A stretch of 18,762 nucleotides of DNA from a virus: IMG/VR virus record IMGVR_UViG_3300045988_018182, positions 1-18,762 of that record, one strand, 5' to 3'. Below the pieces are notes generated by a model, which was not told where the DNA came from, searched no databases, and saw nothing but the letters and a program-made list of their open reading frames with translations. The position numbers were made by a program, and so were the translations under genes. Shown here piece by piece: positions 5,991-18,762 of the stretch (position 1 is its first letter; every line of letters starts with the position of its first letter).

Positions 5991-6508
5991 TGCTGTTGCG
6001 TCCTTTCTCGTGGGGTTACTCTCGGCTCTTTGTTGCCGAAAATATCATGATTGCCCAATACCGCCCACGTGATGCAATCATGTTCGGCGGCTTCGGCTGC
6101 GGTCTTGGTGGCCATCTGATTAACTCGTGCTCCGAATACGGCCAACTCGCGATACATATCGCGATCGGTGTTTTTAGAGTCCTCATACCTGCCGGTGGTC
6201 ACATTATAGGTGAGCGCCGAGGTTTGATACTGGTCCACCTTTTTCGCGAGATCATCCAATGCGGTATCAACCGAGGCTTGCCATGCTGCGATCTCGGCGA
6301 GAACCCCGTTGATCGCTTCAATGTCGGCGTTTTCATCTTCGGCGAGATTATCCACCTGCTCCCTGAGCTGGTCGAGATGCTCGGCCACCTCCTGTACATA
6401 GCCGAGTACGGTGAGCGTATCACGGTACGAAAACGGTTGCACGGTGGTGAAATAGCGTTGCCTTGGGTCGATATCCAAAGGGGCGGCGCACATGTTGATT
6501 CCGTCCAT
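5987..6508 (-). CDS. Hypothetical structural protein, coiled-coil rich (173 aa)
   Basis: It sits inside the late structural operon with SD TTGGAGGAT and is coupled by an ATGA overlap to the next ORF. No family recognised. The antisense ORF 5951..6544 was rejected. Confidence 0.6.
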   Translation of the reverse strand: MDGINMCAAPLDIDPRQRYFTTVQPFSYRDTLTVLGYVQEVAEHLDQLREQVDNLAEDENADIEAINGVLAEIAAWQASVDTALDDLAKKVDQYQTSALTYNVTTGRYEDSKNTDRDMYRELAVFGARVNQMATKTAAEAAEHDCITWAVLGNHDIFGNKEPRVTPRERTQQQ

Positions 6509-6540
6509 TTATCCTCCAATCTGTCAATGTCAAGTATACT

Positions 6541-7356
6541 CTAGTGGCCGAGATTATAGGCGAGACTCGTAGAGTAGAGTTGCGGCGAATTGGTCATGTT
6601 GTCCCCACTGCCCCACACGCCCATAAACAGGTCTTCCAGCGAGCCGATTACCATCATGTCGATATTAAGCATGGTGCTACGCCAATCGAGCAGCAATTGT
6701 GATTGCGAGCCGCTGGTGCCGATCGTATGCGACACGCTATTGCCCTTGTCGGAAGAATGCGCATAATCCGTGTTGCTGGTACTAGACGCGGTGGCCGAAC
6801 TGTCCTGTTGTGTCGCCGTATGCGTGTTGCCGGTCGAATCCGTCTGCGAAGCGCTGGTGGCGTATTTGCGGAAATCATCAATACGGGTCTGCGGAAACTC
6901 CGAATTAAAAGTCATTGACGAATTATCGGCGGTAGTGTCGGACGTGCTGTTCGCGGTGGACTCGTTGGACTGCGTGCCCGAAGACTTTCCCGAAGATTCG
7001 TTCGTACTGGTCGAATCCATCTCCTGCCGAACGTCGGACGTGATGAACGGGTCGAACTTGCGCTGAGCGGAAACGTACATCTGATTGAAATAGTCCATTT
7101 GTTCGCGCATGGTACGCCCAAGGTAAAAAATGAACATTTGCGGCGTTTCGCTTCCGATTTCGCGTAACGCGTAGTGGGCTACGATTTTCTCGTTCAATTT
7201 CGCCCGATAGTTTTCGTCGAAGATCGGATAATATTGCGAACTTAAATGTAATTTTTCGTCCGTATTAAAACCGCGGTCGATCAGATTACCCAAGGTCAAT
7301 GTGTAGTCGGCCATACTGTCCTTGATCGCATACATGCTCAAGTCCTGTGCCATCAT
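6541..7356 (-). CDS. Lower collar protein (phi29 gp11-like, 271 aa)
   Basis: YYPIFDENYRAKLNEKIVAHYALREIGSETPQMFIFYL is the pattern I associate with picovirus lower collar proteins. The middle is S/T-rich and low-complexity. Its start overlaps the connector stop (ATGA), and the position is syntenic. Confidence 0.65.
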   Translation of the reverse strand: MMAQDLSMYAIKDSMADYTLTLGNLIDRGFNTDEKLHLSSQYYPIFDENYRAKLNEKIVAHYALREIGSETPQMFIFYLGRTMREQMDYFNQMYVSAQRKFDPFITSDVRQEMDSTSTNESSGKSSGTQSNESTANSTSDTTADNSSMTFNSEFPQTRIDDFRKYATSASQTDSTGNTHTATQQDSSATASSTSNTDYAHSSDKGNSVSHTIGTSGSQSQLLLDWRSTMLNIDMMVIGSLEDLFMGVWGSGDNMTNSPQLYSTSLAYNLGH

Positions 7357-8291
7357 TCCTCCTCTTTGTTTCCGTCCACATCCAGCAAACCGCCTGAAGT
7401 GGTATCATTCCATTCGATGCCGATAGGGTAGCCCGAGTCGGCCATTTGCGGCCACAATCGGTTAATCGTATCGCACGCCTGTTGACGTGATTTGAGATAG
7501 CTTAAGCGGAAAACGTTCGTACGGCTATTGCCTGCCGTCACTTCGCTTTCCAGCAATCTTTCCTTTTTTTCCGTGGTTGAATTGTCAATGCCAAGATAGT
7601 TTACGAGTTCATTCCACACCTGCGTTTTCGTGGTGATGATCTTATCCGCCAAAAACGGCGTCATATTAGGGAAGGTCTGAAACATTCCGGTAATATCCGC
7701 ACTATCGTAGGCGTACACGTATGGGTCGCCGTCTTCTCGCGCTTTCATCAAATTTTGAGCCGTGAGCTTGTTGGTTTCGGACGTGGCGATAATGAGGGGT
7801 ACCGAAATATTGTCCAAATTCACGTCCAATGCGCGGTCTGCGATAGCCAATCGTGTCGCGTAATTCCACATCACATCAACCATGGTACATCTAAGCTGGT
7901 TGTCCCAAATGGGTACGCATTCCTTGCTGCCGATCTGCGGGTGAGAATAACTTGTCGCCACGGGCTGGAATGATGTCGGATTATTGTAGTTATTGACGCC
8001 TCCGATATTGCCTGAAGTGACCATAAACCGGTTGACCCCCTTGCGTTTGTCGGGGAAAAAGAGTGCTAGACCGTTTTCAAAAAGCGTCAATTCGAGGTAG
8101 CGTTCGTCGATATATGGGGGTAGGTTAACCCATTTAAACCGGCTTACGGCCAACATTTCGATCAATTTCATGTATTGGTTGATGCGTAGACTTTGCCGCA
8201 TTTCGGGCAGATTCAAATTGCCCCACATGCTGCCGAGCACGCTCTGATTGTCCCAGTGCGCGGCCTTGCGTGCATTACTGCGTTTACTCAT
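7353..8291 (-). CDS. Head-tail connector / upper collar (portal), phi29 gp10-like (312 aa)
   Basis: [16 protein letters not shown] parallels phi29 [43 protein letters not shown] parallels [43 protein letters not shown] parallels FLKSREEACEKINELY. I moved the start from the track's GTG 8297 to ATG 8291. Confidence 0.9.
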   Translation of the reverse strand: [312 protein letters not shown]

Positions 8292-8303
8292 AATCACCGT
8301 CCT

Positions 8304-8340
8304 AAAAATAATGGAGAGAGTTATATTGCTCTCTCCATTA
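8304..8340 (-). terminator. Intercistronic hairpin + T5 fused to connector SD
   Basis: TAATGGAGAGAG (8309-8320) / CTCTCTCCATTA (8329-8340), a 12-bp stem. On the minus strand it is followed by AUUAUUUUUAGGACGG and then ATG 8291. Confidence 0.55.
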
Positions 8341-8347
8341 TATCCGG

Positions 8348-10588
8348 TCAGTACGAGATACCGGCCAGTGGCGTATTGTCCGCGTAATCGGTGACGCCGA
8401 TCTTATCGGGGTCAGTCCATACGGTCACGCCACTTTCAAAAATGCCCTTGACGGTCAGACGGTACTCTTCGGGGCATGTGCTCGATCGCACGTACAACTC
8501 ATGGAGCTTCCAGTAGGTGAAATTGTTCATTGCCATGAGATTCTCCGGCAAGCGCATAAACCTTTGCACATAGTATCCGTACCTTAGCCACACTTCTCCG
8601 ATGGCCTGCATGGCAGCGGGGGAGATTTGCCTATAACGCACCATGACACCAATCAGCCCGTTGGCTAGGTTGAATGCGTCTCCACCCAACGCGCCCGACG
8701 TAGTAGGGGGCACTGTTTGGGTCTGCTGCACTTGGGCGTTGATGCCGGCGATCGTGTTTTCGTAATCGCCTTGCGCCGTAGCCTGTGCAAGCTGTTTGTT
8801 CATGTCGGCTAGCTGCATGGTCTGCTGATTGCCGAGATTGGTTTGCGCAAGTGAAAAAGCGTTGGCTTGAGAGGTGCTTGCGTTATTGGTGGTTTGCGTG
8901 TTCGCAAGCTGCTGGTTCGCCGTGCTCACGTTGTTGCCATAGGTTTGCTGGTTCGTCCATGCACCGATGGCGGTTCCAGCAATAGCTCCGGCCACGCCAC
9001 CGACATTACCGGAGACGGCTGCGCCGGCGGCGTTGGCGATTCCTGAACCTATCGTGTTAATCTGCGCCATCTGGTTGTTAAACCCGAGGTTTTTCAATGT
9101 CAAATCGGTCCCCATCTGCGCACTTTGGTTGCTGATCGCATTCATGGCGTTTCGGTTCGACGTGCCCAGCCGGTTTTGCGCGCTTGCATACTGGGTACCC
9201 AATTGCGCTTGTGCGTAGGCATTGTTAATGCCCATTTGGGTTTTCTGATACCCCCAGTCAGCGGTTTGCTGGGCATACTGCCTAGTGTATGCGCTGTTCG
9301 CAAGCGCAAGCGCCGAGCCATTGTTTACCGCCATAAAGGTAGGGAAGTTCGTAATGCCGAAGCTCGCATTCAACATTTCGCCCGTATCGATAGGCAATCC
9401 CTTGCCGTCCGGCAATGGTTGGCGGTCTCCAAGATTGCCGGCATGGTATCCGCGCGCGTAAAAATTCAAACGAGGAGAGGGGGGCGCATAGTCCCATGTT
9501 TCGCGGATGATCAGATCGGCGCTCGGTATCTGCTCCGGCTCATACGTAATGACGGTGCCATTAAGACAGCTGCATTCGATGTAAGCGTAGGGGGCGGTCA
9601 GGAACTTTTTGAGATACTTATACCGTTCGGGCAGTACGAAAGCGTCGCGGAAATTTTTCAGGTTGATGATATCCGTGTAACGTGCGTTGGAATTGTCGTT
9701 TCGCTTGCGTAATTCCCAGCAATTGCCGGTAAAGCTGACTGAATGGCCGAAAAGTTCCGTTTTTTTCGGTTGACCGTCCAATAGCGCTTGCGGGAGGTGG
9801 GGTACCGCGTAAATGCCGCAAATGCCTTGCGTGACCCATGGGGCATTCATGCCCTCAGTAAAAAATACGACAATATCTGCGGGAGTGTCCAAATAGTACA
9901 TGCTGGTACCGTTGAGTTGACTTTCGAAAGCGCTGCCGGTGGCGGTATTGACTACCGGATTATCCTTGGTGCCCGTATCCGATTCGAGATCGGTGGTGCT
10001 TACGATGATCAATCCATAGGACGTGTATTTTACCCCGTCACGTTCGGCCACGTCCATTAACGGTTTCCATGACTCGTTTGTGAGTACGGTGCATTTGCCT
10101 GTGTCGAGTCCTTCGGGCAGATCGAGGTAGGTTTTCCCATAGTCTTTCCACGCGTTTTCGTTAGCAACCCCCACATGCCCCCTTTCAACGTAGGCGTTAC
10201 CCAACTGGACATCGTGTTGGAATGATTGCCATACATCCAATTGGATATTTAATTGCGTTGTGTTGGCGTTGATATAATCGCATGTCTGAATGAAATAATA
10301 CCAACTGCGGGGCGTGTCGAAATCGTAGTCGTTCGTGGCGATCAGATAATTATACTGCGACGCCTGAGCAAACGGGATGGGCAATCGTACCGGCAACCCA
10401 TACTTACTCATGGTGCAATTCGTAAATTCGATACCATTCAAACGGTCGAAATACTCTTTCTGAGCCTGTTCATCCCATTTGACTATATCCCTATACCCCA
10501 TATCCCACGGGACATTACACAATTTGAATCGTGTGTTCGGCGTCCATTTGGCATAACTGAAGTTGATCGGCAAGTCGTTTGCGCTCAT
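8348..10588 (-). CDS. Tail knob / major tail protein, phi29 gp9-like (746 aa)
   Basis: The N-terminal third parallels phi29 gp9: SWYYFIQTCDYINANTTQLNIQLDVWQSF versus [32 protein letters not shown]. The middle is Q/N-rich and carries a Gly/Ala hydrophobic stretch, GSGIANAAGAAVSGNVGGVAGAIAGTAIGAW. I moved the start from TTG 10606 to ATG 10588, which follows AGGAGG. Confidence 0.85.
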   Translation of the reverse strand: MSANDLPINFSYAKWTPNTRFKLCNVPWDMGYRDIVKWDEQAQKEYFDRLNGIEFTNCTMSKYGLPVRLPIPFAQASQYNYLIATNDYDFDTPRSWYYFIQTCDYINANTTQLNIQLDVWQSFQHDVQLGNAYVERGHVGVANENAWKDYGKTYLDLPEGLDTGKCTVLTNESWKPLMDVAERDGVKYTSYGLIIVSTTDLESDTGTKDNPVVNTATGSAFESQLNGTSMYYLDTPADIVVFFTEGMNAPWVTQGICGIYAVPHLPQALLDGQPKKTELFGHSVSFTGNCWELRKRNDNSNARYTDIINLKNFRDAFVLPERYKYLKKFLTAPYAYIECSCLNGTVITYEPEQIPSADLIIRETWDYAPPSPRLNFYARGYHAGNLGDRQPLPDGKGLPIDTGEMLNASFGITNFPTFMAVNNGSALALANSAYTRQYAQQTADWGYQKTQMGINNAYAQAQLGTQYASAQNRLGTSNRNAMNAISNQSAQMGTDLTLKNLGFNNQMAQINTIGSGIANAAGAAVSGNVGGVAGAIAGTAIGAWTNQQTYGNNVSTANQQLANTQTTNNASTSQANAFSLAQTNLGNQQTMQLADMNKQLAQATAQGDYENTIAGINAQVQQTQTVPPTTSGALGGDAFNLANGLIGVMVRYRQISPAAMQAIGEVWLRYGYYVQRFMRLPENLMAMNNFTYWKLHELYVRSSTCPEEYRLTVKGIFESGVTVWTDPDKIGVTDYADNTPLAGISY

Positions 10589-10596
10589 AAATCCTC

Positions 10597-10637
10597 CTAA
10601 AAACAATAGGTGCGAGAATTATTCTCTCGCACCTATT
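10597..10637 (-). terminator. Hairpin + T5 after capsid gene, fused to tail-knob SD
   Basis: AATAGGTGCGAGA (10605-10617) / TCTCGCACCTATT (10625-10637), a 13-bp stem. On the minus strand it is followed by GUUUUUAGGAGG and ATG 10588. Confidence 0.6.
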
Positions 10638-10657
10638 TTACCTGTTATCGCCGAATG

Positions 10658-12373
10658 TCAGGCGGTGACGGTGATTTTCGCCGTTCCGGTAGCTCCAGCG
10701 AATTTCGCGGTGACGTTGGCCGCTCCCGCGGCGGTTCCGGTAAGCACTCCGTTAGGGGTGATGGTCGCGTTGGCGTCAACCGTCCACATGGCGAGGTTGG
10801 TCACGTCGGCGGTGTTACCGTCCGTCTTGGTGGCAATGGCCTTGAGCGCGACATGCTCGCCGCTCTTCACCGCCTTTTCGCCCTGAATCTCAAGGGATTC
10901 GATGGCTCCCGTCTTCCAGCCGCCGAGCCACGTACCGACAACCGGCACGGACAGTGCTGCGGAAACCGTCTGATCGATCTCGGGATGGGTGGGGTCAATA
11001 TAGGTTGCCTGAGCGGTGACCTTGAGCACTTCGGCGGTTTCGTCGAGACCGCAACGGAGGATACCGCCGTTGTCGATCGAAGTGAACTGCGAGGTCGCAC
11101 CCTCAACCTTGTATTCGATGCCGATCGGCTGGAAGCTTGCGGTATCCCCGTTGGCGCTTGCGATCTCAGATTCGACTTGTACCAAGTCGCCACGAGACAC
11201 GTTTTCGGGGGTAACCGATGGCTGACCGTATTTCATGACGCGCAAGGTAAACTCCGGCTTGCTGGTGGTGAGCGTATCCGGGAGGGTCACGGACTCGTTG
11301 GAGCCTTCGCCCGTCCAAAACAGCACGGCGTTAGCAAACGGGTTAGGGGTGATGCTGCCCCTATGCTTGTAGAAGATGTTGCGCGTGCCGTCAATCGGAT
11401 TGACCGGGGAGCTCGTCGTTTCAAGCATTTCGTCCCAGCAGAAGAAGAAGTCTTCCGTGGTCAACACGGCCTGAACCTTACCGGCGGCACCGCCAATGCC
11501 GAACATATCTGCCGGAATCGGAATGATACGATACGGCACGTTGACCTTGTCGATATTAAACGCTGCGGCCAATGCTTCAACGTTGAGTGCGGCGATAACC
11601 TGAGGCGTGGCGAACAGGATTGCCTCCGAATCGCGCCATGGGGTAACCCAGCTCATGGCGTTATATCGTGGCATGGCCGACATGGGGGATGCCTTGAGTT
11701 CGTTTGCGGTCTGCTGGATAAGGCGCAGAAGATTCTTGGCGTCCGCTTCAGTGGAGTCTGCCGCACCCACATCTGCGGTGTGAACTCGATAAAAACCGCC
11801 CTTACGCGCGTATTCTGCGAAAGTCTGCGTCTTCATCAAATACATGTCGTTACGGTCGGACAGAATCGGCGCGTTCATGATCTCCGCGATATAGTCCGCC
11901 ATGCCGCTTTCGCCGTCAAACGCAGTCAGAAGCGCGTCTTCCGGAATGGTGACCGGATAGTAGTGGTCGAACGTGAGCGGGTGGAACACGCTTGCGGTAG
12001 GCAGTGAATAGCGGCCATACACATCATCCCCGAGATACTCTTGGTTAAAGTTGCGGGTGCGTGCCTTGACAAGGCCGACTGCGGCCTGTTCGTACGTGCT
12101 GCCGTAACGCTTCAGGGTACGGGGGGAGCCGATCAGCTTCAAGGGGTCATCCCAGTCCGCATGCTGGACATAGAGTCCGATCAAGCGCTGAATCAACACT
12201 CCCGTGAATTCATCACGGAGGTAGGGGAAGTTGCGCATGGTGTCAACCGCGTTGCGAATATTGCCTTGCGTGGCGCTTGGAATGCGCACCTGGAACTGTG
12301 GGGAGGTGGCGTTTCGGACGGCGTTGAAAATCTCAACGTCACCCTTAGAAGCCAACGGTCGAATATTAGACAT
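10658..12373 (-). CDS. Major capsid protein with C-terminal bacterial Ig-like (Big_2-type) domain(s) (571 aa)
   Basis: It follows the scaffold gene, as gp8 does in phi29. The C-terminus ...VDANATITPNGVLTGTAAGAANVTAKFAGATGTAKITVTA is a typical Big_2 ending, and phi29 gp8 also carries a BIG2 domain. It is the largest late ORF upstream of the tail genes. Confidence 0.8.
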   Translation of the reverse strand: MSNIRPLASKGDVEIFNAVRNATSPQFQVRIPSATQGNIRNAVDTMRNFPYLRDEFTGVLIQRLIGLYVQHADWDDPLKLIGSPRTLKRYGSTYEQAAVGLVKARTRNFNQEYLGDDVYGRYSLPTASVFHPLTFDHYYPVTIPEDALLTAFDGESGMADYIAEIMNAPILSDRNDMYLMKTQTFAEYARKGGFYRVHTADVGAADSTEADAKNLLRLIQQTANELKASPMSAMPRYNAMSWVTPWRDSEAILFATPQVIAALNVEALAAAFNIDKVNVPYRIIPIPADMFGIGGAAGKVQAVLTTEDFFFCWDEMLETTSSPVNPIDGTRNIFYKHRGSITPNPFANAVLFWTGEGSNESVTLPDTLTTSKPEFTLRVMKYGQPSVTPENVSRGDLVQVESEIASANGDTASFQPIGIEYKVEGATSQFTSIDNGGILRCGLDETAEVLKVTAQATYIDPTHPEIDQTVSAALSVPVVGTWLGGWKTGAIESLEIQGEKAVKSGEHVALKAIATKTDGNTADVTNLAMWTVDANATITPNGVLTGTAAGAANVTAKFAGATGTAKITVTA

Positions 12374-12387
12374 TACTATTCCTTTCT

Positions 12388-12669
12388 TTAGTTAAACAAG
12401 TCTTCGATGGACTCGTGCGTTTCGTCGCCGTCACCGTCGTCGTCGGACGGGGTGGGGTCGGTATAGCCGAGCGTGTCCATCATGGCCTTCAATGCGGCCA
12501 ATTCCTTTTCGATCGAGTCAAGTCGTGCGCTCACGTCCGGTTCGGACGGTTCCGGTTCCTGTTCCGGCTCTTTCGGCTTGATTTCATCATCGATGGTTTC
12601 AGTCTGTTTCTCTTCTTCGGTTGGCGGCGGAGTGATGTTTTCGTCGCTCTCATTGTTTGGGTCTGCCAT
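12388..12669 (-). CDS. Putative scaffolding protein (phi29 gp7 position, 93 aa)
   Basis: Small and very acidic, with E/D/P-rich helical-looking sequence. It is the first gene of the late operon, immediately upstream of the capsid gene. SD AAGGAG (12680-12675). Confidence 0.55.
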   Translation of the reverse strand: MADPNNESDENITPPPTEEEKQTETIDDEIKPKEPEQEPEPSEPDVSARLDSIEKELAALKAMMDTLGYTDPTPSDDDGDGDETHESIEDLFN

Positions 12670-12703
12670 GTAAGCTCCTTACGGTAGGCAATGTTTCCAT
12701 TAA

Positions 12704-12712
12704 ATTATATCA
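12704..12712 (-). promoter_or_regulatory. Putative late promoter, extended -10 TGaTATAAT
   Basis: The minus strand reads cgcaTGaTATAATtt directly downstream of the early terminator, about 35 nt before ATG 12669. Confidence 0.55.
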
Positions 12713-12720
12713 TGCGACGG

Positions 12721-12753
12721 GAAAATAAAATGACCCTCCAATCACGGAGGGTC
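12721..12753 (-). terminator. Rho-independent terminator ending the early/replication unit
   Basis: Minus-strand GACCCUCC (12753-12746), loop GUGAUU, GGAGGGUC (12739-12732), then AUUUUAUUUUC. Confidence 0.8.
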
Positions 12754-12889
12754 TAAATTGTCCTATCAGAGCGCGAAAGTGATAATCGTAGGGCACTACC
12801 GCCACGATAGCAAATCATGGTTGGCGGCGTTTTCAGCCGTGGCAGTCCAACCTATGTCGCTCCCAGTCGAAAATCGACGCTCACAGGAC
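12722..12889 (-). ncRNA. Candidate ~165-nt structured RNA (pRNA-like) with its own promoter and terminator
   Basis: TGcTATAAT (12904-12896) places the TSS near G12889. The 5' GUCCU..GAGCG (12889-12885, 12882-12878) pairs with CGCUC..AGGAC (12773-12769, 12764-12760). Internal helices are GUCGA-UUU-UCGAC (12878-12866) and CUGCCACG/CGUGGCGG (12845-12838 / 12806-12799). GGUUGG (12852-12847) is complementary to CCAACC (12824-12819). No ORF. Confidence 0.45.
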
Positions 12890-12895
12890 ATGATT

Positions 12896-12904
12896 ATTAT
12901 AGCA
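12896..12904 (-). promoter_or_regulatory. Putative extended -10 promoter TGcTATAAT overlapping the polymerase stop codon
   Basis: The minus strand reads atgcTATAAtaatc. The polymerase stop TAA (12899-12897) lies inside the hexamer. Confidence 0.45.
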
Positions 12905-14348
12905 TAACCATTGTGCCGTAGTCGTCCGCGACTTGCACGCCATGTCGAAACAGCTCGTAGGGGATGGGCTGTGTGAATTGGCTTCCAGCCATGCAGATAT
13001 CAACTTCGCCATCATCCTTCCACCCTTGATATCGGTTCATGCCTAAAATGGTGAGCTTTTCGTATCGGGCTGCGATTTTCCATTTGCCTAGTTCGGTGGG
13101 GTGGGTTTCGCATGATTCCACCGGTTCCCAGCCGCTCAAAATGCACCCGTCCGTGTTCGCGTACAAGAGCCGATCGGAGTTGGCATGGCAGACGTCCATA
13201 AGCTTTCGCCTTGCGTAGGCGTTGACCCATACGGGTACGGGGAGGAAATCGGTTTTCAGATTCGATTCCTCTCTCTGTGCTACATCCCAGTCCAAGGTCA
13301 TACCGTCTTTTGACGTGGGAAGCATGACGGCACCTTTGGGTAGACTCGCCATTTTGCCTACGAGCGCGTTCATGACCAGTTTCGCCATTTGCCGTTTCTC
13401 GCCCGTCGCCTTCTGCTTCAAGTCCCCCCATTCATCAACGAACGAGCGGAAAAACCCCTTGGAGCGCCGGAACTTCCACCCCCGCACATGCCTGTATACG
13501 CTCACCGTATAATTCTCATAAAGCAATTTTTGGTCAATGTCAGTCAATACTCTTGTAACATACCCCCTAGTGCTGGTGAGTCGATTGAGTCCATACACGC
13601 TACGATTGTCGAGCAGAAAAGGGTATCCGTTTGGCTTCAATTCCGCTCGAAACGTAAGTTCGTCGCAATGCAACGGCATATCATCATCCTGTTCATACGC
13701 ACCGTCGTAAGGTTCAGGCAATCCCCATGGAAGCCATTCGTTTCGCAATATGCTCGGATACATCGAGTTGCAGTCAACGTCAACGGCCTTGCCGTACGTC
13801 CCCTCTCTTGCAACCATGAAACCGCCGATATAGGCATCATGCAATGACTTTTTGGTTTCGGGCTTCAGTTGGGGGAATTTGTCGTAATACCACTTCCACT
13901 CGCCGGACGCAAACGCTTCCATGCTCGCCCCACCGGCAGTGATCTTGCACAAGCCGCGCTGATCGTACTCGCTTAAAATGTTGAGCAGTTGAGCATCAGT
14001 CATGGTAAGCTTGCAATTTTCCCGCAAAAGATTCGAAATATCAAAAAACCGTGCGGAATTCTCACGGTCGATGCGGACGGTAAGACTAAAAAACTTGCCT
14101 TTTTGGGATACTATCGCATCCCAGCTCAGGTTAGCGTTATGTTCATTGTGGGGTAGGGAGTGTACGACATGCGCTATAAACGGGTCGAGTAGATCGGTAT
14201 TGGTCACGTAGACGGTGAGTTTGCCGCCCTTCATGATGGACGCCAAAAGGCGGTTAGGTTGGATAACATCACGTAGCACGGTGCCGTCCGTGCATCGTAT
14301 GACATTATCCACACACCATAAGCCCACTCTATTGTCATGCACTATCAT
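12897..14348 (-). CDS. Protein-primed family-B DNA polymerase (phi29 gp2-like, 483 aa), divergent active-site motifs
   Basis: Collinear with phi29 DNAP from memory: ITAGGASMEAF / MTAGSDSLKGF; AYIGGF (YxGG); DVDCNSMYPS (motif A); PLHCDELTFRAELKPNGYP (TPR1 region); KLVMNALVGKMAS (motif B); LLYANTDGC (motif C); LGKWKIAARY (KxY). Confidence 0.92.
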   Translation of the reverse strand: MIVHDNRVGLWCVDNVIRCTDGTVLRDVIQPNRLLASIMKGGKLTVYVTNTDLLDPFIAHVVHSLPHNEHNANLSWDAIVSQKGKFFSLTVRIDRENSARFFDISNLLRENCKLTMTDAQLLNILSEYDQRGLCKITAGGASMEAFASGEWKWYYDKFPQLKPETKKSLHDAYIGGFMVAREGTYGKAVDVDCNSMYPSILRNEWLPWGLPEPYDGAYEQDDDMPLHCDELTFRAELKPNGYPFLLDNRSVYGLNRLTSTRGYVTRVLTDIDQKLLYENYTVSVYRHVRGWKFRRSKGFFRSFVDEWGDLKQKATGEKRQMAKLVMNALVGKMASLPKGAVMLPTSKDGMTLDWDVAQREESNLKTDFLPVPVWVNAYARRKLMDVCHANSDRLLYANTDGCILSGWEPVESCETHPTELGKWKIAARYEKLTILGMNRYQGWKDDGEVDICMAGSQFTQPIPYELFRHGVQVADDYGTMVML

Positions 14349-14375
14349 AGTATAACTTCCCTTGATTGCCGTCCG

Positions 14376-15341
14376 CTACTTTTCCAGCGCGCCCACTTCC
14401 GCCATCCACCGGTCGAACTGCCGCCGTGAGCGTTGATAACCCTCACTGTTGTCCCTAAAAACCGACGTGAAGCCGTGTCGAACGGGGTCATACACCGTCC
14501 AATCAAACACGATTCGTGGGGCGTCGGTCTGTTCGATAAAAGCGCGTTTCTGCGCTGCGGATAGTTGACGGAATCGTTTCAGCCGTTTCGAGCCGAGTGA
14601 GGTGGCCAAGATTTTTTCAAAAACCTCATAACGGCCACGTGACATGTAAGATGGCCATTCGTGCTCACCGTACAAGTCTTTGCTCTGTTTGCCTGTTCCC
14701 TGTTTGTTAGACTTGCGTTTCTGTTCGGTGCGCAATCCCAAGATTTCGGCTGCGTCATGCATTTGCTCAAGCAGCTCGTTACGATGTCCGCTTTCCAATT
14801 GGGAGCGCACGAACGCTTCGTCGCTCAGCACGTTGGTCATTTGCAGAAAGTCAGTGAGTTTTGATGGGATGATCTGAGTGCGTCCGAAACCCTCACCGGT
14901 AGTGCCGGTGATTTCGGCCAAACGCTGCTCGTACACGCTACGTTGCGGCATAGCCTGTTCTTTGTTCCAGTCGTTGATCTTCTGCCGTGCCGCATTGATC
15001 TTCCGCTGCTGCTGTCTTAGCAGTTTGCGTCTTTTCGCCACCGGTTCCGCAGCGATTTGCGCGTCCGAGAGTAGCGTGCGCTGGGCAAACATGATGTCTT
15101 TTTTCGTCGGCTTTTCCACGGCGGTGGCATGGTATGGGGTTGCTTTCGCTTCCGCTATGGCCTGTTTCCGCTGCTTCTCCCACTCCTGACCTAAGGTTTT
15201 CGCAATATTGACCAATTGTTTGTCAGCGGTTTTTGCAAGATTCGAGTGAGAGTACGAGCCGAGCTGTTTGATATTACGTGCTGCGCGTGCTTGCGCGGCT
15301 TGATGTGCCTTGACGTGATTCCGGTTACGACTGCGAGACAT
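14376..15341 (-). CDS. Putative terminal protein (phi29 gp3 position, 321 aa)
   Basis: It lies immediately upstream of the polymerase gene, as in phi29 and Cp-1. It is basic, K/R/Q-rich and helical-looking. I moved the start to ATG 15341 (SD AAGAGG, 8-nt spacer) from the track's GTG 15350. No sequence motif confirms the call. Confidence 0.6.
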   Translation of the reverse strand: MSRSRNRNHVKAHQAAQARAARNIKQLGSYSHSNLAKTADKQLVNIAKTLGQEWEKQRKQAIAEAKATPYHATAVEKPTKKDIMFAQRTLLSDAQIAAEPVAKRRKLLRQQQRKINAARQKINDWNKEQAMPQRSVYEQRLAEITGTTGEGFGRTQIIPSKLTDFLQMTNVLSDEAFVRSQLESGHRNELLEQMHDAAEILGLRTEQKRKSNKQGTGKQSKDLYGEHEWPSYMSRGRYEVFEKILATSLGSKRLKRFRQLSAAQKRAFIEQTDAPRIVFDWTVYDPVRHGFTSVFRDNSEGYQRSRRQFDRWMAEVGALEK

Positions 15342-15363
15342 AGTGCGCACCTCTTAAGATGGC

Positions 15364-15389
15364 GAGAGCACCCAAGATTGGGTGCTCTC
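15364..15389 (-). promoter_or_regulatory. 11-bp stem-loop between SSB-like and TP genes (weak terminator, processing or stability element)
   Basis: GAGAGCACCCA agat TGGGTGCTCTC. On the minus strand it is preceded by TATAAT (15416-15411) and followed by GCCAUCUU (a poor U tract) and then the TP SD. Confidence 0.35.
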
Positions 15390-15421
15390 AATAATGAATG
15401 CTACTTAATGATTATAGCGTG

Positions 15422-15859
15422 TCACTTACTCGCTTCGTCCACCGGCTCGATGCTGAAGAACTTGAAGCCGCGGCGGGAACGACGTTCCACTACCTTGATG
15501 GCAAGCGGGGCTTCCCAAGTGTTCGGGGTTCCGAAGATTCCGAACATGGTGTTCAGTCCGGCAGCGAGAGTTGGGGAGGTGGCCGCATACGCCTTGTTAT
15601 CATCGGTTACGATGATGACGCGCACGGTGTTGGAGATTTCTCCCGTCTGATCATCCGTCACTTGTACGGACTGTGCAACGGCGTTCACCATGTTCAGGGT
15701 CTCGTTCAAATGTTCGTCAAGCTTTTCGGCGTTCTGAAGCGCAGAGTAGAGCTTGATCTTGCCTTCACGAGTGGAAGTGTCGATGAAGTGTTGGACGGTG
15801 CCAAGCTCGCCATTTTCGGTGTTGAATGCGGCTAGAGCTTTATTGTTGGTGTTTTCCAT
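15422..15859 (-). CDS. ssDNA-binding protein, phi29 p5-like (145 aa)
   Basis: MENTNNKALAAFNTE...EGKIKLYSA...IKVVERRSRRGFKFFSIEP parallels phi29 p5 as I recall it (MENTNIVKATFDTE...EGQIKIFNA...VKVVQGTSSKGNVFFSLQ). It is syntenic, upstream of TP and polymerase. SD AAGGGAAG (15875-15868). Confidence 0.6.
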   Translation of the reverse strand: MENTNNKALAAFNTENGELGTVQHFIDTSTREGKIKLYSALQNAEKLDEHLNETLNMVNAVAQSVQVTDDQTGEISNTVRVIIVTDDNKAYAATSPTLAAGLNTMFGIFGTPNTWEAPLAIKVVERRSRRGFKFFSIEPVDEASK

Positions 15860-15898
15860 AATATTATCTTCCCTTATATTGTTGTTGTTATTTTGTTC

Positions 15899-15928
15899 TT
15901 AGGCTTATGCCTAAAATCTTTTATATCA
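15899..15928 (-). promoter_or_regulatory. Putative extended -10 promoter TGaTATAAA plus 16-bp palindrome at about +1
   Basis: The minus strand reads TGaTATAAA (15928-15920), then TTAGGCATAAGCCTAA (15914-15899) starting about 6 nt downstream. It lies in the 85-nt gap before the SSB-like gene. Confidence 0.4.
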
Positions 15929-15944
15929 CATACCGTCATTATTT

Positions 15945-16241
15945 TCAATTTTCGGCGTGTCGTTTTGTATGTTCTTCGGGGTCCCATTCTTGCGGCTCCC
16001 CGAAAGTCGCATACTTGTAAAAAGTTTCCTCATTCATGGAGACTTTTTGCGAAAAAATGTGAATAGAGCGTGGAATGAAATTAGGAAACAGTTTCTTGGC
16101 ACGAATCGAATATGCACGCGCGTCCTTAAGTCGCCCGTCAATGACATGCTCGGCTTCCATAAAATCGCCATCAACAAGTTCCATGCCCTTGAGCACGGCA
16201 TACACGCGCGTACGAAAAATGTCGGTTTTGATTCTAGCCAT
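15945..16241 (-). CDS. Putative dsDNA-binding, p6-like early protein (98 aa)
   Basis: It occupies the phi29 gene 6 position (upstream of p5) and is of similar size. There is loose similarity to my recollection of p6 (MA+...I.+T.V....VDG..., acidic C-terminal tail PQEWDPEEH). This is weak evidence. Confidence 0.35.
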   Translation of the reverse strand: MARIKTDIFRTRVYAVLKGMELVDGDFMEAEHVIDGRLKDARAYSIRAKKLFPNFIPRSIHIFSQKVSMNEETFYKYATFGEPQEWDPEEHTKRHAEN

Positions 16242-16246
16242 ACGCG

Positions 16247-16765
16247 TTACCTCCCCTGTAGTAAGATTTTCTGCAATTCAGTATCATTATATCGTGTCGT
16301 GTCCAGTCTGTCAAAATTTTTAAACACGGCAATAATAAGATTCTGAGCTTCCGGGCTGTTGAAAATCGTGCAACAATCATACGACGTACCGCCCTTGACG
16401 GCGCAGACGGCGCACCATGCGATCAGATTCGGCGGGTTCACAGTGCCGTCCAAGTATTCCACGTCATACGTGCGGGACAGGGCGGCGGCGAGTCCATCCC
16501 ATGCGGTCAGGCTGCCGCAAATCTGCGATACGACAATTATTGCTTGCGGAAACCATGTGCTAGCCCCTTCGCGCCACAGTTCGCATAGCATGGTAACCGC
16601 ACGGCAGCATGTTTCAAAATCGCCATACCCCATGTCATACCGTTTCAGATTCAGGTCACGTTTCCGGCCTTTCACAGCCTTGACAATACGGGGTGATTCC
16701 ATGATCGCATCATCAAACCGGCGCATGCGATAGATTGGCGTCCGGTTATTGCCACGATTAAACAT
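16247..16765 (-). CDS. Hypothetical Cys-rich early protein (172 aa)
   Basis: I chose the start at ATG 16765 (MFNRGNN...), which overlaps the upstream stop by 8 nt (ATGTTTAA). The track's longer version (to 16897) would overlap the upstream ORF by about 140 nt. No family recognised. Confidence 0.55.
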   Translation of the reverse strand: MFNRGNNRTPIYRMRRFDDAIMESPRIVKAVKGRKRDLNLKRYDMGYGDFETCCRAVTMLCELWREGASTWFPQAIIVVSQICGSLTAWDGLAAALSRTYDVEYLDGTVNPPNLIAWCAVCAVKGGTSYDCCTIFNSPEAQNLIIAVFKNFDRLDTTRYNDTELQKILLQGR

Positions 16766-16934
16766 AATAGCGCTTCTCCACTCGGAAATATGCAATATCA
16801 CGTACGCGTGCGGGTATTGCCGCCCACTCGCGTACAAGATCGGCGGCCTTATCATACGAGGTGGCATACCCCACTTCGATAGGGGGCTTGTCGCCATGCC
16901 TCACATATGCGAGTGCAACAAAAGTCTCATACAT
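16758..16934 (-). CDS. Hypothetical early protein (58 aa)
   Basis: ATG 16934 follows GGAG with an 8-nt spacer and lies 2 nt after the upstream TGA. The track start at 16940 is a TTG. Confidence 0.5.
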   Translation of the reverse strand: MYETFVALAYVRHGDKPPIEVGYATSYDKAADLVREWAAIPARVRDIAYFRVEKRYYV

Positions 16935-16936
16935 AA

Positions 16937-17140
16937 TCAAAACTCCACTCCTTCATCACCGGACTCGGCACCGAATCTCCACATGTCAACCCACAAGTCC
17001 GTACTCGGACACCGTTTCGGCGGGGCGAAAGCATCACCCTTGCGCTTCACTCCCATCCAAAACGCTCTCAACCGCCAATACGTGTCAGCATAATAGCAAT
17101 TTTTGCAAGTCCATGAATGCAACCAGCCACGAAAATACAT
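16937..17140 (-). CDS. Hypothetical W/C-rich early protein (67 aa)
   Basis: ATG 17140 lies 2 nt after the upstream TGA (same TGAnnATGTAT junction as the next gene). The track start at 17146 is a TTG. Confidence 0.5.
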   Translation of the reverse strand: MYFRGWLHSWTCKNCYYADTYWRLRAFWMGVKRKGDAFAPPKRCPSTDLWVDMWRFGAESGDEGVEF

Positions 17141-17142
17141 GA

Positions 17143-17388
17143 TCAATTCCTATCCAGTAATGGCGTGCGGGCAATGTCGATAGCGTCCAACATAAGATCA
17201 ACCACCTGACTACCATCTCCCGCATCATACGCACACAGAGCAGTGGCATTGCAAAACCCGGCTAAAGTGCGGAATCGGACGGCATACCTCAACTCGTATC
17301 GTTGGCCATGCGGACAATACCACAACTCAACATTACCCCCCACAAACTGTGAGGAAAACACGGCAACTTTCATATCATGTTCAGCCAT
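17143..17388 (-). CDS. Hypothetical early protein (81 aa)
   Basis: It is tightly packed in the operon; ATG 17388 lies 1 nt after the TGA of the small membrane ORF. No family recognised. Confidence 0.55.
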   Translation of the reverse strand: MAEHDMKVAVFSSQFVGGNVELWYCPHGQRYELRYAVRFRTLAGFCNATALCAYDAGDGSQVVDLMLDAIDIARTPLLDRN

Positions 17389-17389
17389 T

Positions 17390-17560
17390 TCAAAACCCTT
17401 TCACGACAAGAACCAAAACCATAGCCACGCTTACTACAAGTATGACCAAAAAACAAAACGTGTCACGCCAATCACGCGGCAATTCGCAAAACACCGTAGC
17501 AGCCATTATAAGAAACAGTACGGAAAGAATACAGACGGAAACAATCATGCCAACCATCAT
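17390..17560 (-). CDS. Unlisted 56-aa two-TM membrane protein
   Basis: My own translation: MMVGMIVSVCILSVLFLIMAATVFCELPRDWRDTFCFLVILVVSVAMVLVLVVKGF. Its ATG overlaps the upstream stop (ATGA at 17560-17557). It exactly fills an otherwise unexplained 168-nt gap. Confidence 0.6.
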   Translation of the reverse strand: MMVGMIVSVCILSVLFLIMAATVFCELPRDWRDTFCFLVILVVSVAMVLVLVVKGF

Positions 17561-17787
17561 ACCAGCACCACCTTCACCATGCCAACCATAGTGCCATCCA
17601 TGTCAAACGTGGCATTATCGATATCCACGCCCACATTCATACCCGCATAGGCGCTGCGGATATGAGATAGAACGCCGTCCAACGACGCTTTCAACGACGT
17701 TGCGCGGAACATGCCACTAGGCTTCACGCAGTCAGGCAGAATCTCAAACACCTGAAACCCATCATTAGTGATGATGAAATACCACAT
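17557..17787 (-). CDS. Hypothetical early protein (76 aa)
   Basis: Start set at ATG 17787 (MWYFIITNDG...), after AGGAG and 1 nt after the upstream TGA. Confidence 0.55.
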   Translation of the reverse strand: MWYFIITNDGFQVFEILPDCVKPSGMFRATSLKASLDGVLSHIRSAYAGMNVGVDIDNATFDMDGTMVGMVKVVLV

Positions 17788-17788
17788 G

Positions 17789-18028
17789 TCAAATCTCCTT
17801 TTTTTCGACGCGCGTAGCAAGAAGAAATGTAACAGGGGGAGTATCCTTCACAGTCTTAATATGAGAAAGTGCGACACCATACTTACCGCATAGCTCCCTA
17901 CGAATGTAAGACTTAGCTCCCCTAAGAGTTCTATTCTTCCCAATATCCAGCATATAGAAATCATCGATATCAGTGAAGTAAACAACAGCAGTTCTAGCCC
18001 ACCAACTGATAGTAATCACAGTATTCAT
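17789..18028 (-). CDS. Hypothetical early protein, paralogue 2 (79 aa)
   Basis: Start set at ATG 18028 (MNTVITISWWARTAVVYFTDID...). It is clearly homologous to the 76-aa upstream neighbour, and both are preceded by TGATTGGAG. Confidence 0.6.
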   Translation of the reverse strand: MNTVITISWWARTAVVYFTDIDDFYMLDIGKNRTLRGAKSYIRRELCGKYGVALSHIKTVKDTPPVTFLLATRVEKKEI

Positions 18029-18041
18029 TGTTACTCTCCAA

Positions 18042-18272
18042 TCAGCTCTCAACACGATTAGCGCGGTAACAGTCAATATCATTAGTAGACCACTCAAACC
18101 TCATGCGAGAAATCGTGACGCCATACTGTTTGAACATTATGCGACGAACACGAGCTTTCGCACTGCTCAAGGTAGTGACTTCACCAAGGCCGAACTTATA
18201 AACACCCTCAATATCAGTAAAAGAAACCACGGCCAAATTACGCGCCCAATCAATGGCGATAATAGTGTTCAT
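18042..18272 (-). CDS. Hypothetical early protein, paralogue 1 (76 aa)
   Basis: MNTIIAIDWARNLAVVSFTDIEG... It has SD TTGGAGG and is homologous to 17789..18028. Confidence 0.6.
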   Translation of the reverse strand: MNTIIAIDWARNLAVVSFTDIEGVYKFGLGEVTTLSSAKARVRRIMFKQYGVTISRMRFEWSTNDIDCYRANRVES

Positions 18273-18286
18273 TTGTCTACCTCCAA

Positions 18287-18529
18287 TCAGTAGGTCAAGG
18301 CTTCAGCTACCGCTTCTGCGATAGTGTCTCCAGTTCCCAAGACAACAACAGGATGACAATGTCTAGCATAAACGGCATAATACACTTCAACCGCATCCAC
18401 CTCACGCCCATCTTCGGTAGTACGATAGTATGGAATCTCAACCCTTGTGACGTAGGCACGTGCCATCAATTCCCGCACCTCATCGACACTAACGCCCGCT
18501 TCTTTTGCGATCCGCTTATAGCTTTCCAT
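18287..18529 (-). CDS. Hypothetical right-terminal early protein (80 aa), possible small HTH
   Basis: Its ATG (18529-18527) and SD are the last nucleotides of the right ITR. The N-terminus YKRIAKEAGVSVDEVRELMARA looks helix-turn-helix-like, which is weak evidence. Confidence 0.55.
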   Translation of the reverse strand: MESYKRIAKEAGVSVDEVRELMARAYVTRVEIPYYRTTEDGREVDAVEVYYAVYARHCHPVVVLGTGDTIAEAVAEALTY

Positions 18530-18561
18530 TTTATTTTCCTTCCCTTGAAGTTGATAACTAC

Positions 18562-18570
18562 ACTATAACA
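18562..18570 (-). promoter_or_regulatory. Putative inward extended -10 promoter in right ITR (copy)
   Basis: Mirror copy of 193-201. It would drive the early operon that starts at ATG 18529. Confidence 0.4.
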
Positions 18571-18624
18571 CAAACAAAAACACGACACGCCCGAAAACAA
18601 ACAACACGCCCAAAATAAAAAAAC

Positions 18625-18653
18625 TTGACAGGCTGGGCTAAAAAAAATACAAT
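18625..18653 (+). promoter_or_regulatory. Outward-facing sigma70-type promoter in right ITR (copy)
   Basis: TTGACA 18625-18630, 17-nt spacer, TACAAT 18648-18653. It points toward the right terminus, about 100 nt away. Confidence 0.5.
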
Positions 18654-18762
18654 AGAGGCATAAACACAACAAACAGTCAACAAAGACACAGAACAAAAAA
18701 AAATAATACACATATAAAAAAAACCACAAGGGAAAATCTTCACACAAACCCATACCCCTCCC

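Follow-up and report, generated by a model that had tools for sequence, protein, structure and literature searches.

A predicted independent, conserved and strongly folded non-coding RNA gene separates the DNA polymerase gene from the head genes in the viral DNA described here (IMG/VR record IMGVR_UViG_3300045988_018182, positions 1–18,762; the whole stretch of 18,762 nt is termed the window). It extends from about G12889 to a terminator and probably encodes the prohead (packaging) RNA, or pRNA, of a clade of phi29-like Bifidobacterium phages. A pRNA analogue at this place had been proposed in an earlier, sequence-only reading; as far as computation shows, the proposal is supported by the protein partners, the position, the transcription signals and the fold, with the helices redrawn. 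Every expectation for a pRNA-type RNA that can be put to the sequence was borne out in predicted form.

Phage, relatives and genomic setting

The window represents a small phi29-like Bifidobacterium phage. The nearest relative is BP1, and the kin comprise the Bifidobacterium phages BP1 and BD811P1-3, whose records carry no annotated RNA feature at the position of this RNA. The polymerase is of the protein-primed type B, and the capsid protein, gp9 tail knob, gp10 connector and gp16 ATPase of phi29 each have a homologue in the window. Pfam matches are Phage_connector (3e-40), Podovirus_Gp16 (8e-46) and Phi29_MCP (4e-57), and PHROGs are concordant; by both, the gp10-type connector and gp16-type ATPase that had been claimed as partners of a pRNA are encoded, together with a phi29-type capsid protein. 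These gp10/gp16-type packaging genes accompany the RNA strictly, in every relative. tRNA and tmRNA genes are not found (ARAGORN).

The RNA locus is situated at the end of the early region, directly after the polymerase gene and before the head genes. The position of the phi29 pRNA is likewise at the end of the early region (PMC6266182), after genes 2 and 1, and the synteny noted earlier is upheld. Other pRNA candidates are not found in the window, where the gap 12670–12896 is the only one seen with a conserved folded RNA. The connector N-terminus of the window phage, MSKRSNARKA, resembles that of phi29 gp10, MARKRSNTYR, which interacts with pRNA (PMC1636484); this likeness is the only hint of the predicted prohead/connector binding.

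Transcription signals

The extended −10 promoter of the RNA gene, TGCTATAAT, is read from the sequence at 12904–12896 (minus strand), where it had been placed before, and overlaps the last codons and the TAA stop (12899–12897) of the polymerase gene. The −10 box is kept in all 78 of 78 distinct close relatives, with TATGAT and TGTTATAAT as the only variants. TGNTATAAT occurs in four copies against 0.59 expected, and its coding-strand copies fall in intergenic gaps in three of three cases. G12889, located 7 nt beyond the −10 box, agrees with the start predicted earlier. The predicted RNA is about 165 nt long (12722–12889, minus strand), from this inferred start through the terminator U tract. 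RNA positions are numbered from G12889 as position 1, position n corresponding to window coordinate 12890−n.

The intrinsic terminator hairpin, GACCCUCC-GUGAUU-GGAGGGUC, occupies 12732–12753 (minus strand) and is followed by a U tract at 12722–12731. A terminator scan confirmed the strong terminator previously reported at 12753–12732, with the T tract after the stem. Compensatory changes occur in 6/8 stem pairs, and the loop GUGAUUG is conserved. The hairpin is a separate module, 6 nt past the folded domain. Downstream of it, outside the RNA and upstream of the first late ORF, is the extended −10 promoter of the late operon, TGATATAAT (12704–12712, minus strand), conserved in all close relatives. 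The late operon begins with a 93-aa ORF at 12388–12669, and the capsid gene is next. The gap between polymerase and late operon had been described as free of ORFs; none of at least 50 aa is present, the small ORFs are not conserved, and a 31-aa ORF from 12891 loses its start codon in relatives. A promoter and a terminator of its own, at the end of the early region, make the RNA gene a predicted separate small transcription unit.

Occurrence, conservation and covariation

Every one of the 85 close loci has the RNA, as do 59 metagenome loci; loci without a match are truncated contigs or belong to other clades. The covariance model scores 200 bits at the window RNA and matches all related loci searched (100/100). 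Sequence conservation of the RNA region is on par with that of the flanking polymerase and capsid genes. Folding energy is −66 kcal/mol (z = −4.66), and none of 200 shuffles is equally stable.

Among 89 distinct sequences, modelled positions are paired in 98.0% of cases and 33 of 48 pairs are compensatory. In the shuffle control these values for pairing and covariation are reached by 0/500; in the shifted-partner control, with the 3' partner moved by 1–3 columns, compensatory pairs number no more than 11. The same helices are recovered by RNAalifold from an independent MAFFT alignment, with compensatory changes in 26/42 pairs. The RNA is assigned to the minus strand because G-U pairs are frequent. 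The fold of the opposite strand is also stable (z = −4.41 vs −4.66). An all-against-all covariation scan aimed at tertiary pairs is unusable, its signal being lost in phylogenetic background.

Secondary structure

The folded region comprises about 130 nt upstream of the terminator. The predicted fold consists of a 5'/3' closing helix, a junction region, and a three-way junction that is closed by GGG/CCC and carries the C/E arm and the D hairpin. The helices of the pRNA-class core (A, B = GGG/CCC, C, E and D) each show compensatory changes.

The closing A helix (12760–12889, minus strand) is built of two parts flanking an internal loop. The outer part joins positions 1–5 (12889–12885) with 126–130 (12764–12760; 99.5% paired, 3 compensatory pairs); the inner part joins positions 8–13 (12882–12877) with 116–121 (12774–12769; 100% paired, 3 compensatory pairs), and its pair U13-G116 varies as UG, UA and CG. 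The internal loop contains nearly invariant A124 and U125. The 5'/3' helix of the sequence-only reading, in which GUCCU..GAGCG pairs with CGCUC..AGGAC (12773–12760), is borne out, with compensatory changes in relatives. The GUCGA-UUU-UCGAC hairpin is also present as described; as the P1 hairpin UCGA-UUU-UCGA it occupies 12867–12877 (positions 13–23, minus strand), 98.9% paired and compensatory in 3/4 pairs.

A nearly invariant segment, GCCCUACGAU (12785–12794, positions 96–105, minus strand), pairs with two 5' segments. Its CCC (97–99) forms the B helix with GGG at 12862–12864 (26–28, minus strand) and closes the three-way junction; this helix is 100% paired, with A-U in two sequences at each of two pairs. 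Its CGA (102–104) forms a long-range helix with UCG at 12868–12870 (20–22, minus strand), 98.5% paired, in which C-G is replaced by U-A in eight sequences. The covariance model contained neither helix and therefore does not bias these counts; RNAalifold recovers both helices. P1 and helix 20–22/102–104 are mutually exclusive, and both covary.

The C/E arm (12816–12856, minus strand) comprises the C helix, an internal loop, the E helix and the E loop. The C helix is formed by positions 34–36/72–74 and 38–43/66–71, with A37 bulged, and 7/9 of its pairs are compensatory. The CE-type internal loop ACUGCCA consists of 7 nt on the 5' side only (12840–12846, positions 44–50, minus strand). The E helix, CGGC/GCCG (positions 51–54/62–65), is CACC/GGUG in the group of locus L147 and is capped by the E loop UGAAAAC (55–61). 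The D-type hairpin (12795–12811, minus strand) has the stem GCUAUC/GGUAGU (positions 79–84/90–95; 99.3% paired, 6/6 pairs compensatory) and the 5-nt loop GUGGC (12805–12801, positions 85–89, minus strand). The minimum-free-energy structure contains instead a helix 82–88/99–105, which is rejected: it shows no compensatory changes and 18 mismatches at one pair, against 6/6 compensatory pairs in the competing D hairpin.

Candidate loop–loop contact

The internal loop and the D loop are complementary, and one pair of the predicted contact covaries. GCCA (47–50), at the end of the internal loop, is complementary to UGGC (86–89) of the D loop, 97.8% paired. The pair 47–89, which is outside the model, is GC in 71 sequences, AU in 9, GU in 9 and unpaired in none; A47 is accompanied by U89 in 9/9 cases and by C89 in none. 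Covariation on both sides is seen in only 1/4 loop–loop pairs, and eight sequences have a U-U mismatch at 50–86.

A different contact had been suggested earlier. GGUUGG (12852–12847) and CCAACC (12824–12819) do lie at these coordinates; taken then for a pseudoknot or a loop–loop contact, they actually belong to the C helix, an ordinary stem in which 4/6 of these pairs are compensatory. The multimerisation contact was thus misplaced onto a plain stem, and the better candidate is found inside the pairing that had been named a helix. In that pairing, CUGCCACG/CGUGGCGG of 8–9 bp, the central GCCA/UGGC survives as an internal-loop/hairpin-loop contact, but the whole does not stand as a secondary-structure helix. 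The 8-bp helix 45–52/84–91 has flanks that belong to the covarying E helix CGGC/GCCG and D hairpin GCUAUC/GGUAGU; it is tolerable in the close clade, and its outer pairs break in the divergent loci L098, L134 and L151.

Proposed function and alternative explanations

Steps of the proposed mechanism follow the analogy with phi29. GCCA/UGGC pairing would act between molecules, linking several RNAs hand in hand; the resulting ring would sit on the connector of the empty head. Head and connector would be bound by the central arms together with the invariant single-stranded segments, and the end of the 5'/3' helix would dock the gp16-type ATPase. The docked ATPase would pump the protein-primed linear genome into the head, and the RNA would leave the particle after packaging.

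The gene signals and the covariation show a functional RNA and are compatible with roles besides packaging. A structured trans-acting RNA with another role, such as anti-defence or acting as decoy or regulator for a phage or host protein, is rather unlikely; GCCA/UGGC would then be an intramolecular tertiary contact compacting the three-way junction, and the likeness to pRNA would be convergent or vestigial. If the 9-bp C helix and the 6-bp D helix were packed alongside each other, the loops could meet within one molecule. Such a role is also in keeping with the lack of an Rfam pRNA match and with the absence of P1 and the alternative helix from phi29 pRNA, but it leaves aside that the phi29 core is matched feature by feature, the register of loop complementarity included, that pRNA and this locus occupy syntenic places at the end of the early region (PMC6266182), that co-occurrence with gp10/gp16-type genes is strict in every relative, and that the window has no alternative pRNA candidate.

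The remaining alternatives place the function in cis or in the DNA. An early-to-late switch, in which the element is a 3' end that both stabilises and terminates the polymerase mRNA, or a leader or attenuator of late-operon read-through, is quite improbable. The RNA does lie exactly between the early and late blocks with a strong terminator at its end, and in the BadAztec clade, where the 3' hairpin has no U tract and a second promoter is not visible, the corresponding RNA could be a late-mRNA leader. Against this, the window clade has a conserved promoter of its own for the RNA, and a conserved TGATATAAT promoter follows the terminator and precedes the first late ORF, which does not fit a late leader. 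The terminator is separate from the fold, with no antiterminator pairing seen in a non-exhaustive look, and a multi-helix fold of 130 nt with invariant loops far exceeds what a terminator needs. It is scarcely credible that promoters, terminator and protein-binding sites, as signals in the DNA, alone account for the conservation and that the fold is incidental. Stable folds are predicted for both strands (z = −4.66 and −4.41) and the polymerase coding sequence constrains part of the promoter box, but this explanation is already contradicted by the covariation: 33 pairs are compensatory, many with G-U intermediates, for which pairing is possible on the minus strand alone, and the shuffled and shifted-partner controls are far lower.

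Significance

As a part of the packaging motor, pRNA has so far been demonstrated in Bacillus phages only. It is the only natural RNA known as a functional ring of identical molecules and is in wide use as a building block of RNA nanotechnology (PMC4201828). As late as 2024, a review presented it as a feature unique to phi29 and its Bacillus relatives (PMC11476376). A covariation-supported pRNA-type RNA in abundant human-gut Bifidobacterium phages, together with the hints from further actinobacterial phage clades, if true, would make the RNA-dependent packaging motor much more widespread and would open its origin to comparative testing. It would also provide a source of new high-GC three-way junctions and kissing loops, and the records of BP1 and BD811P1-3 would gain a missing RNA annotation.

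Comparison with phi29 pRNA

The reference is the Rfam structure line of phi29 in RF00044 (Phage_pRNA; gathering threshold 100 bits), the pRNA family of the Bacillus phages phi29, PZA, M2/Nf, B103, SF5 and GA-1. The search with this covariance model that the sequence-only reading had named as a check returned no match, neither in the whole window at the gathering threshold nor in 12500–13100 at E ≤ 10; phi29, as the positive control, scores 145.4 bits. Similarity to phi29 pRNA in sequence or by covariance model is not detectable in the window RNA, and the covariance model R1 of the present analysis does not match phi29, Av-1, BadAztec or L095. A strict descriptor derived from phi29 has a single match in the window (12796–12850, minus strand) and also recovers phi29 pRNA; it was written after both RNAs had been seen and has a background of 0.085 matches per shuffled genome. 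A loose phi29-derived descriptor gives 3–5 matches per genome and is uninformative genome-wide because shuffles give the same.

Both RNAs come from small protein-primed podophages that encode a gp10 connector and a gp16 ATPase. They are each about 170 nt long, follow the polymerase gene, have their own TGCTATAAT-type promoter, and combine a 5'/3' closing helix with a three-way junction. The C helix is of 5 + 4 bp in phi29 and 3 + 6 bp in the window RNA, each with a 1-nt bulge. The internal loop, on the 5' side only in both, is of 9 nt in phi29 (GAUUAAACC, ending AACC) and 7 nt in the window RNA (ending GCCA). The E helix (4 bp), D helix (6 bp) and D loop (5 nt) are of the same size in both; the E loop is of 6 nt in phi29 (UUGAGU) and 7 nt in the window RNA (UGARAAY). 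In each, D-loop nucleotides 2–5 complement the final four nucleotides of the internal loop, as AACC/GGUU in phi29 and GCCA/UGGC in the window RNA. A 3' hairpin domain follows the core in both, the window terminator hairpin being the counterpart, in position, of the dispensable phi29 3' domain.

The window RNA differs from phi29 pRNA in the P1 hairpin and second junction, which have no equivalent in phi29, in the short, interrupted A helix (5 + 6 bp), in a 17-nt 3' linker containing invariant CCCUACGAU, and in two mutually exclusive covarying helices. All genes of the window share one strand, which puts the RNA gene mid-genome, whereas the phi29 pRNA gene is at the genome end. The phage infects a high-GC actinobacterium, not Bacillus as in the phi29 family.

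Comparison with other phi29-like phages

Outside the Bacillus phages, pRNAs have been proposed for Cp-1 and Av-1 as well as for the window. For Streptococcus phage Cp-1, PMC6266182 cites a predicted pRNA (Martin et al. 1996) and states that covariance models built from Bacillus pRNAs do not detect it. Actinomyces phage Av-1 (NC_009643) has an annotated 'packaging RNA' (misc_RNA, 16295–16402), which overlaps opposite-strand ORFs near the right end. The Cp-1 and Av-1 predictions are single-sequence folds, whereas synteny and covariation among 89 distinct sequences support the window RNA.

Syntenic RNAs are also present in Bifidobacterium asteroides phages BadAztec and BadAargau, in a clade of gut contigs (L095, L161 and L162) and in Arthrobacter phages Mendel, Swim, Tillums and Anjali. 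These clades comprise 2–6 distinct sequences each, and the BadAztec and Mendel resemblances were spotted by eye. Rfam pRNA scans give no match in BadAztec1, Av-1, L095 or the Arthrobacter phages. An IMG/VR search with the BadAztec polymerase finds only the phage itself, and an obvious equivalent RNA is absent from the Av-1 gap after ORF 7 and from the gaps of Curtobacterium phage Reje. In the BadAztec clade the 3' hairpin is without a U tract and a second promoter is not visible.

As in the window, the RNAs of the BadAztec, L095 and Arthrobacter clades lie between polymerase/early genes and scaffold/capsid genes and have a 5'/3' helix with compensatory changes. All four have a D-type hairpin and a C/E arm; the arm has a 4-bp E helix and an internal loop on the 5' side only, to which the hairpin loop is complementary. 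The D loop GUGGU of BadAztec and L095 is shared with the window clade. Unlike the window RNA, these RNAs lack P1 and have long A helices of two or three segments, and they are not matched by model R1. Their E loops are phi29-like, of 6 nt (UUAAGU, UUGACU and UUGAAU vs UUGAGU in phi29), and their kissing sequences, ACC/GGU and CAGCU/AGCUG, differ from that of the window RNA.

One joint reading is tentative, at somewhat short of even chances: pRNA would be ancestral to and widespread in phi29-type motors, the window, BadAztec, L095 and Arthrobacter RNAs would be divergent homologues, and the Bifidobacterium RNA would have a conformational switch. Earlier detection would have missed them because only the architecture was kept. 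The switch between P1 and helix 20–22/102–104, both of which covary, could gate ring assembly or ATPase docking. What unites them would then be a CE loop on the 5' side only, a 4-bp E helix and a D loop complementary to the CE loop; several of them would also agree in the kissing core (ACC/GGU) and the E loop (UUNANU).

The RNA gene and its transcription signals

Non-coding RNA gene of about 165 nt, located at 12722–12889 on the minus strand between the polymerase gene and the late operon. Positions in the RNA are counted from G12889 as 1, position n being window coordinate 12890−n. The sequence-only reading had proposed a pRNA-like packaging RNA at 12722–12904, and all its sequence elements were found in place: TGCTATAAT at 12904–12896 overlaps the polymerase stop codon, the start G12889 lies 7 nt past this −10 box, the terminator stem at 12753–12732 is followed by a T tract, and the complementary segments are present. 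The gap, described as free of ORFs, contains none of at least 50 aa, and short ORFs are not kept in relatives. The window has 4 copies of TGNTATAAT, against 0.59 expected. The three on the coding strand are all intergenic, before the ATPase gene, the late operon and the studied RNA; this location, together with the enrichment, indicates that the copies behave as real promoters. The ATPase, lysis and end genes may have a promoter of their own, as suggested by TGGTATAAT at 2772–2780 (minus strand), a third extended −10 box, which lies in the 123-nt gap (2664–2786) preceding the gp16 ATPase gene.

Fold and covariation

The A helix is composed of an outer part (positions 1–5/126–130) and an inner part (8–13/116–121) with an internal loop between them, and is followed by the P1 hairpin (13–16/20–23). 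The B helix, GGG 26–28/CCC 97–99, is 3 bp long and closes a three-way junction. The C helix (34–36/72–74 and 38–43/66–71, with A37 bulged) leads through the CE internal loop ACUGCCA (44–50), on the 5' side only, to the E helix (51–54/62–65, loop UGAAAAC). The D hairpin is formed by 79–84/90–95 with loop GUGGC (85–89), and the terminator hairpin by 137–158. Two segments, CUGGGA and GCCCUACGAU, are single-stranded and nearly invariant. The 7-nt E loop (12829–12835) is UGAGAAU in 60 sequences, UGAAAAC in 33 and UGAGAAC in 5; A58 never occurs together with U61, and positions 58 and 61 are too close for mutual pairing.

Folding energy −66 kcal/mol (z = −4.66). Covariation was sought across relatives and found: 98.0% of the modelled positions are paired in a set of 89 distinct sequences, and 33 of 48 pairs show both-sided changes. 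None of 500 shuffles reached these values, and shifting the 3' partner by 1–3 columns left at most 11 such pairs. A MAFFT alignment of 20 diverse members, for which the covariance model was not used, led RNAalifold to the same set of helices; here 26 of 42 pairs are compensatory. The strand of the RNA, minus, follows from its frequent G-U pairs. Because neither the B helix nor the loop-loop pairs belonged to the covariance model, their counts are unbiased. The B helix is 100% paired, with an A-U replacement in comparison locus L098; the contact between GCCA (47–50) and UGGC (86–89) is 97.8% paired. Pair 47–89 is G-C in 71 sequences, A-U in 9, G-U in 9 and unpaired in none; A47 is accompanied by U89 only, in seven different loop contexts, including BD811P2 and L132 of the close clade.

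The earlier helix map is thereby redrawn. GGUUGG/CCAACC, read as a possible pseudoknot or kissing contact, is instead the upper C helix, 4 of its 6 pairs being compensatory (e.g., GGCCGG/CCGGCC, AGUCGG/CCGACU). Of the '8–9 bp helix' CUGCCACG/CGUGGCGG only GCCA/UGGC is retained; its outer pairs are lost in L098, L134 and L151, and it overlaps the E helix and D stem, each covarying independently (E helix to CACC/GGUG in the L147 group; D stem to UUGUC/GACAA, CCGUC/GACGG and others). The minimum-free-energy helix 82–88/99–105 was rejected, with zero compensatory support.

In P1 (window 12867–12877) 3 of 4 pairs are compensatory; the L147 group, for example, has CCGU/AUGG, and L132 has A15-U21. 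In a long-range helix, 20–22/102–104 (12868–12870/12786–12788), C21-G103 is replaced by U-A in 8 sequences and U20-A104 by A-U, G-C or C-G. The two are mutually exclusive, yet both covary, position 21 doing so with 15 and with 103, and they may constitute a conformational switch. A long irregular stalk like the A helix of phi29 would result if the long-range helix stacked on B.

Distribution

The IMG/VR polymerase search yielded 79 loci, and GenBank relatives brought the close set to 85, all of which carry the RNA (85/85; 78 distinct sequences). A metagenome scan with the polymerase alignment gave 69 further loci; in 59 of them the RNA was recognised, at scores down to 92 bits, by R1, a covariance model derived from the close set, and the loci it missed are truncated contigs or other clades. 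The window and the members most distant from it share 67–89% identity in the RNA, a level similar to the 67–85% in the final 600 nt of the polymerase gene.

Phage genome

Judged from its gene content (Pfam and PHROGs), the window is an essentially whole genome of a phi29-like podophage with the main genes all on the minus strand: protein-primed type B DNA polymerase (12897–14348), phi29-type major capsid protein (10658–12373), gp9-like tail knob (8348–10606), gp10-type connector (7353–8297), lower collar (6541–7356) and gp16-type packaging ATPase (1596–2663). Nearest deposited relatives are Bifidobacterium phages BP1 and BD811P1-3 and one unverified gut contig, whose records hold no annotation in the gap with the studied RNA. 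With 483 aa, compared with about 572 aa in phi29, the polymerase ORF is short, and its Pfam match is restricted to residues 136–380. A 324-aa ORF (14376–15350) upstream of it, in terminal-protein position, gives a weak Mu HTH match and no other family. The only sizeable plus-strand ORF (10–480, 156 aa), at the left end, is convergent with the minus-strand genes and has a 13-bp hairpin terminator behind it (486–514). Perfect long hairpins with T tracts on the minus strand stand directly 3' of the capsid gene (10605–10637) and of a 596-aa tail-spike-like gene (3993–4028); these hairpins probably serve the late operon as internal terminators or attenuators.

Function

That this is a genuine gene for a structured RNA is very likely; that its product is a packaging RNA is probable. 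Gene signals, fold, loop complementarity and covariation are established at the level of sequence. As a packaging RNA, copies would join by intermolecular GCCA/UGGC pairing into a ring on the prohead connector, and the ATPase would dock at the 5'/3' helix, giving the RNA a predicted role in prohead binding and packaging. The less probable alternative is another trans-acting structured RNA, with the same loop contact made within one molecule. Since a separate, conserved promoter serves the late operon past the terminator, a cis-acting role in the early-to-late switch is unlikely; an RNA without function is excluded by the covariation.

The pRNA contact in gp10 is made by its N-terminal part (PMC1636484). 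From the likely start codon, the window connector begins MSKRSNARKA and phi29 gp10 MARKRSNTYR, with KRSN in common, a likeness that is weak evidence for a pRNA. Connectors begin MSRRNAKRE in BadAztec1 and MAKSDYVKNG, far less basic, in Av-1.

Comparison with pRNAs and similar RNAs

No description of the studied RNA was found in the literature searched, and according to a 2024 review pRNA occurs exclusively in phi29 and related Bacillus phages (PMC11476376). Of the earlier proposals of a pRNA outside Bacillus phages, that for Cp-1 is a single-sequence prediction unconfirmed by covariance models (cited in PMC6266182). The Av-1 pRNA annotation is likewise such a prediction, matched by neither RF00044, the Rfam pRNA family, nor R1; this RefSeq 'packaging RNA' of an Actinomyces phage (L089 16295–16402) overlaps opposite-strand ORFs C and B.

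Resemblances in other clades, spotted by inspection with few sequences each and none matched by RF00044, are leads, not proof. BadAztec1 (L085 12680–12857) and BadAargau2 (L086 13051–13229) of Bifidobacterium asteroides have a 178-nt syntenic gap with a TGCTATAGT box; A helix in two segments, GUGAGCG/CGCUCAC and ACAGUGG/CCGCUGU, the latter with compensatory change to GCGGUGG/CCGCCGC; C helix covarying from GGUG/CACC through GGCG/CGCU to AGCG/CGCU; 5'-only loop ending in ACC; E hairpin CGUA-UUAAGU-UACG; candidate D hairpin loop GUGGU. Their E arm AAACCCGUAUUAAGUUACGCCCAC agrees with the phi29 pRNA segment AAACCCUGAUUGAGUUCAGCCCAC at 19 of 24 positions. The syntenic structured RNAs of L085, L086 and L090-L094, with a TGCTATAGT box and an A helix in two segments that shows compensatory changes, have a 3' hairpin without U tract and no visible separate late promoter. 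In a gut clade (L095/L161/L162) the E arm is of BadAztec type, with loop GAAACC, E loop UUGACU and D hairpin CCUC-GUGGU-GGGG. Arthrobacter phages Mendel, Swim, Tillums and Anjali have an RNA before the scaffold and capsid genes (z = −6.0), in Mendel a 147-nt intergenic region (L164 4934–5080) of pRNA-like layout, as in L165-L167. A helix compensatory (CAGGA/UCCUG to CAUGG/CCAUG), 5'-only loop GCAGCU, E hairpin CCCC-UUGAAU-GGGG, D loop with AGCUG; complementarity reduced to GCU/AGC in Tillums.

RF00044 finds the phi29 pRNA, the positive control, at 145 bits but gives no match to the window, not even at E <= 10, so the studied RNA falls outside that sequence family. A strict descriptor, composed from the shared features after both RNAs had been seen, gave one match over both strands of the window, 12796–12850 on the minus strand, and the true phi29 pRNA, against 0.085 matches per shuffled genome; matches of a loose version were no better than chance. 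Compared with phi29 pRNA, the studied RNA has P1 as an additional hairpin, its A helix is short and interrupted, and its 3' linker measures 17 nt. The architecture nevertheless matches that given for phi29 in the Rfam structure line: C helix of 5 bp, 1-nt bulge and 4 bp (3 bp, 1-nt bulge and 6 bp in the studied RNA), 5'-only internal loop of 9 nt (7 nt), E helix of 4 bp in both, E loop of 6 nt (7 nt), linker of 3 nt (4 nt), and D helix of 6 bp and D loop of 5 nt in both. In each RNA the internal loop ends in four bases complementary to D-loop bases 2–5, AACC/GGUU in phi29 and GCCA/UGGC here.
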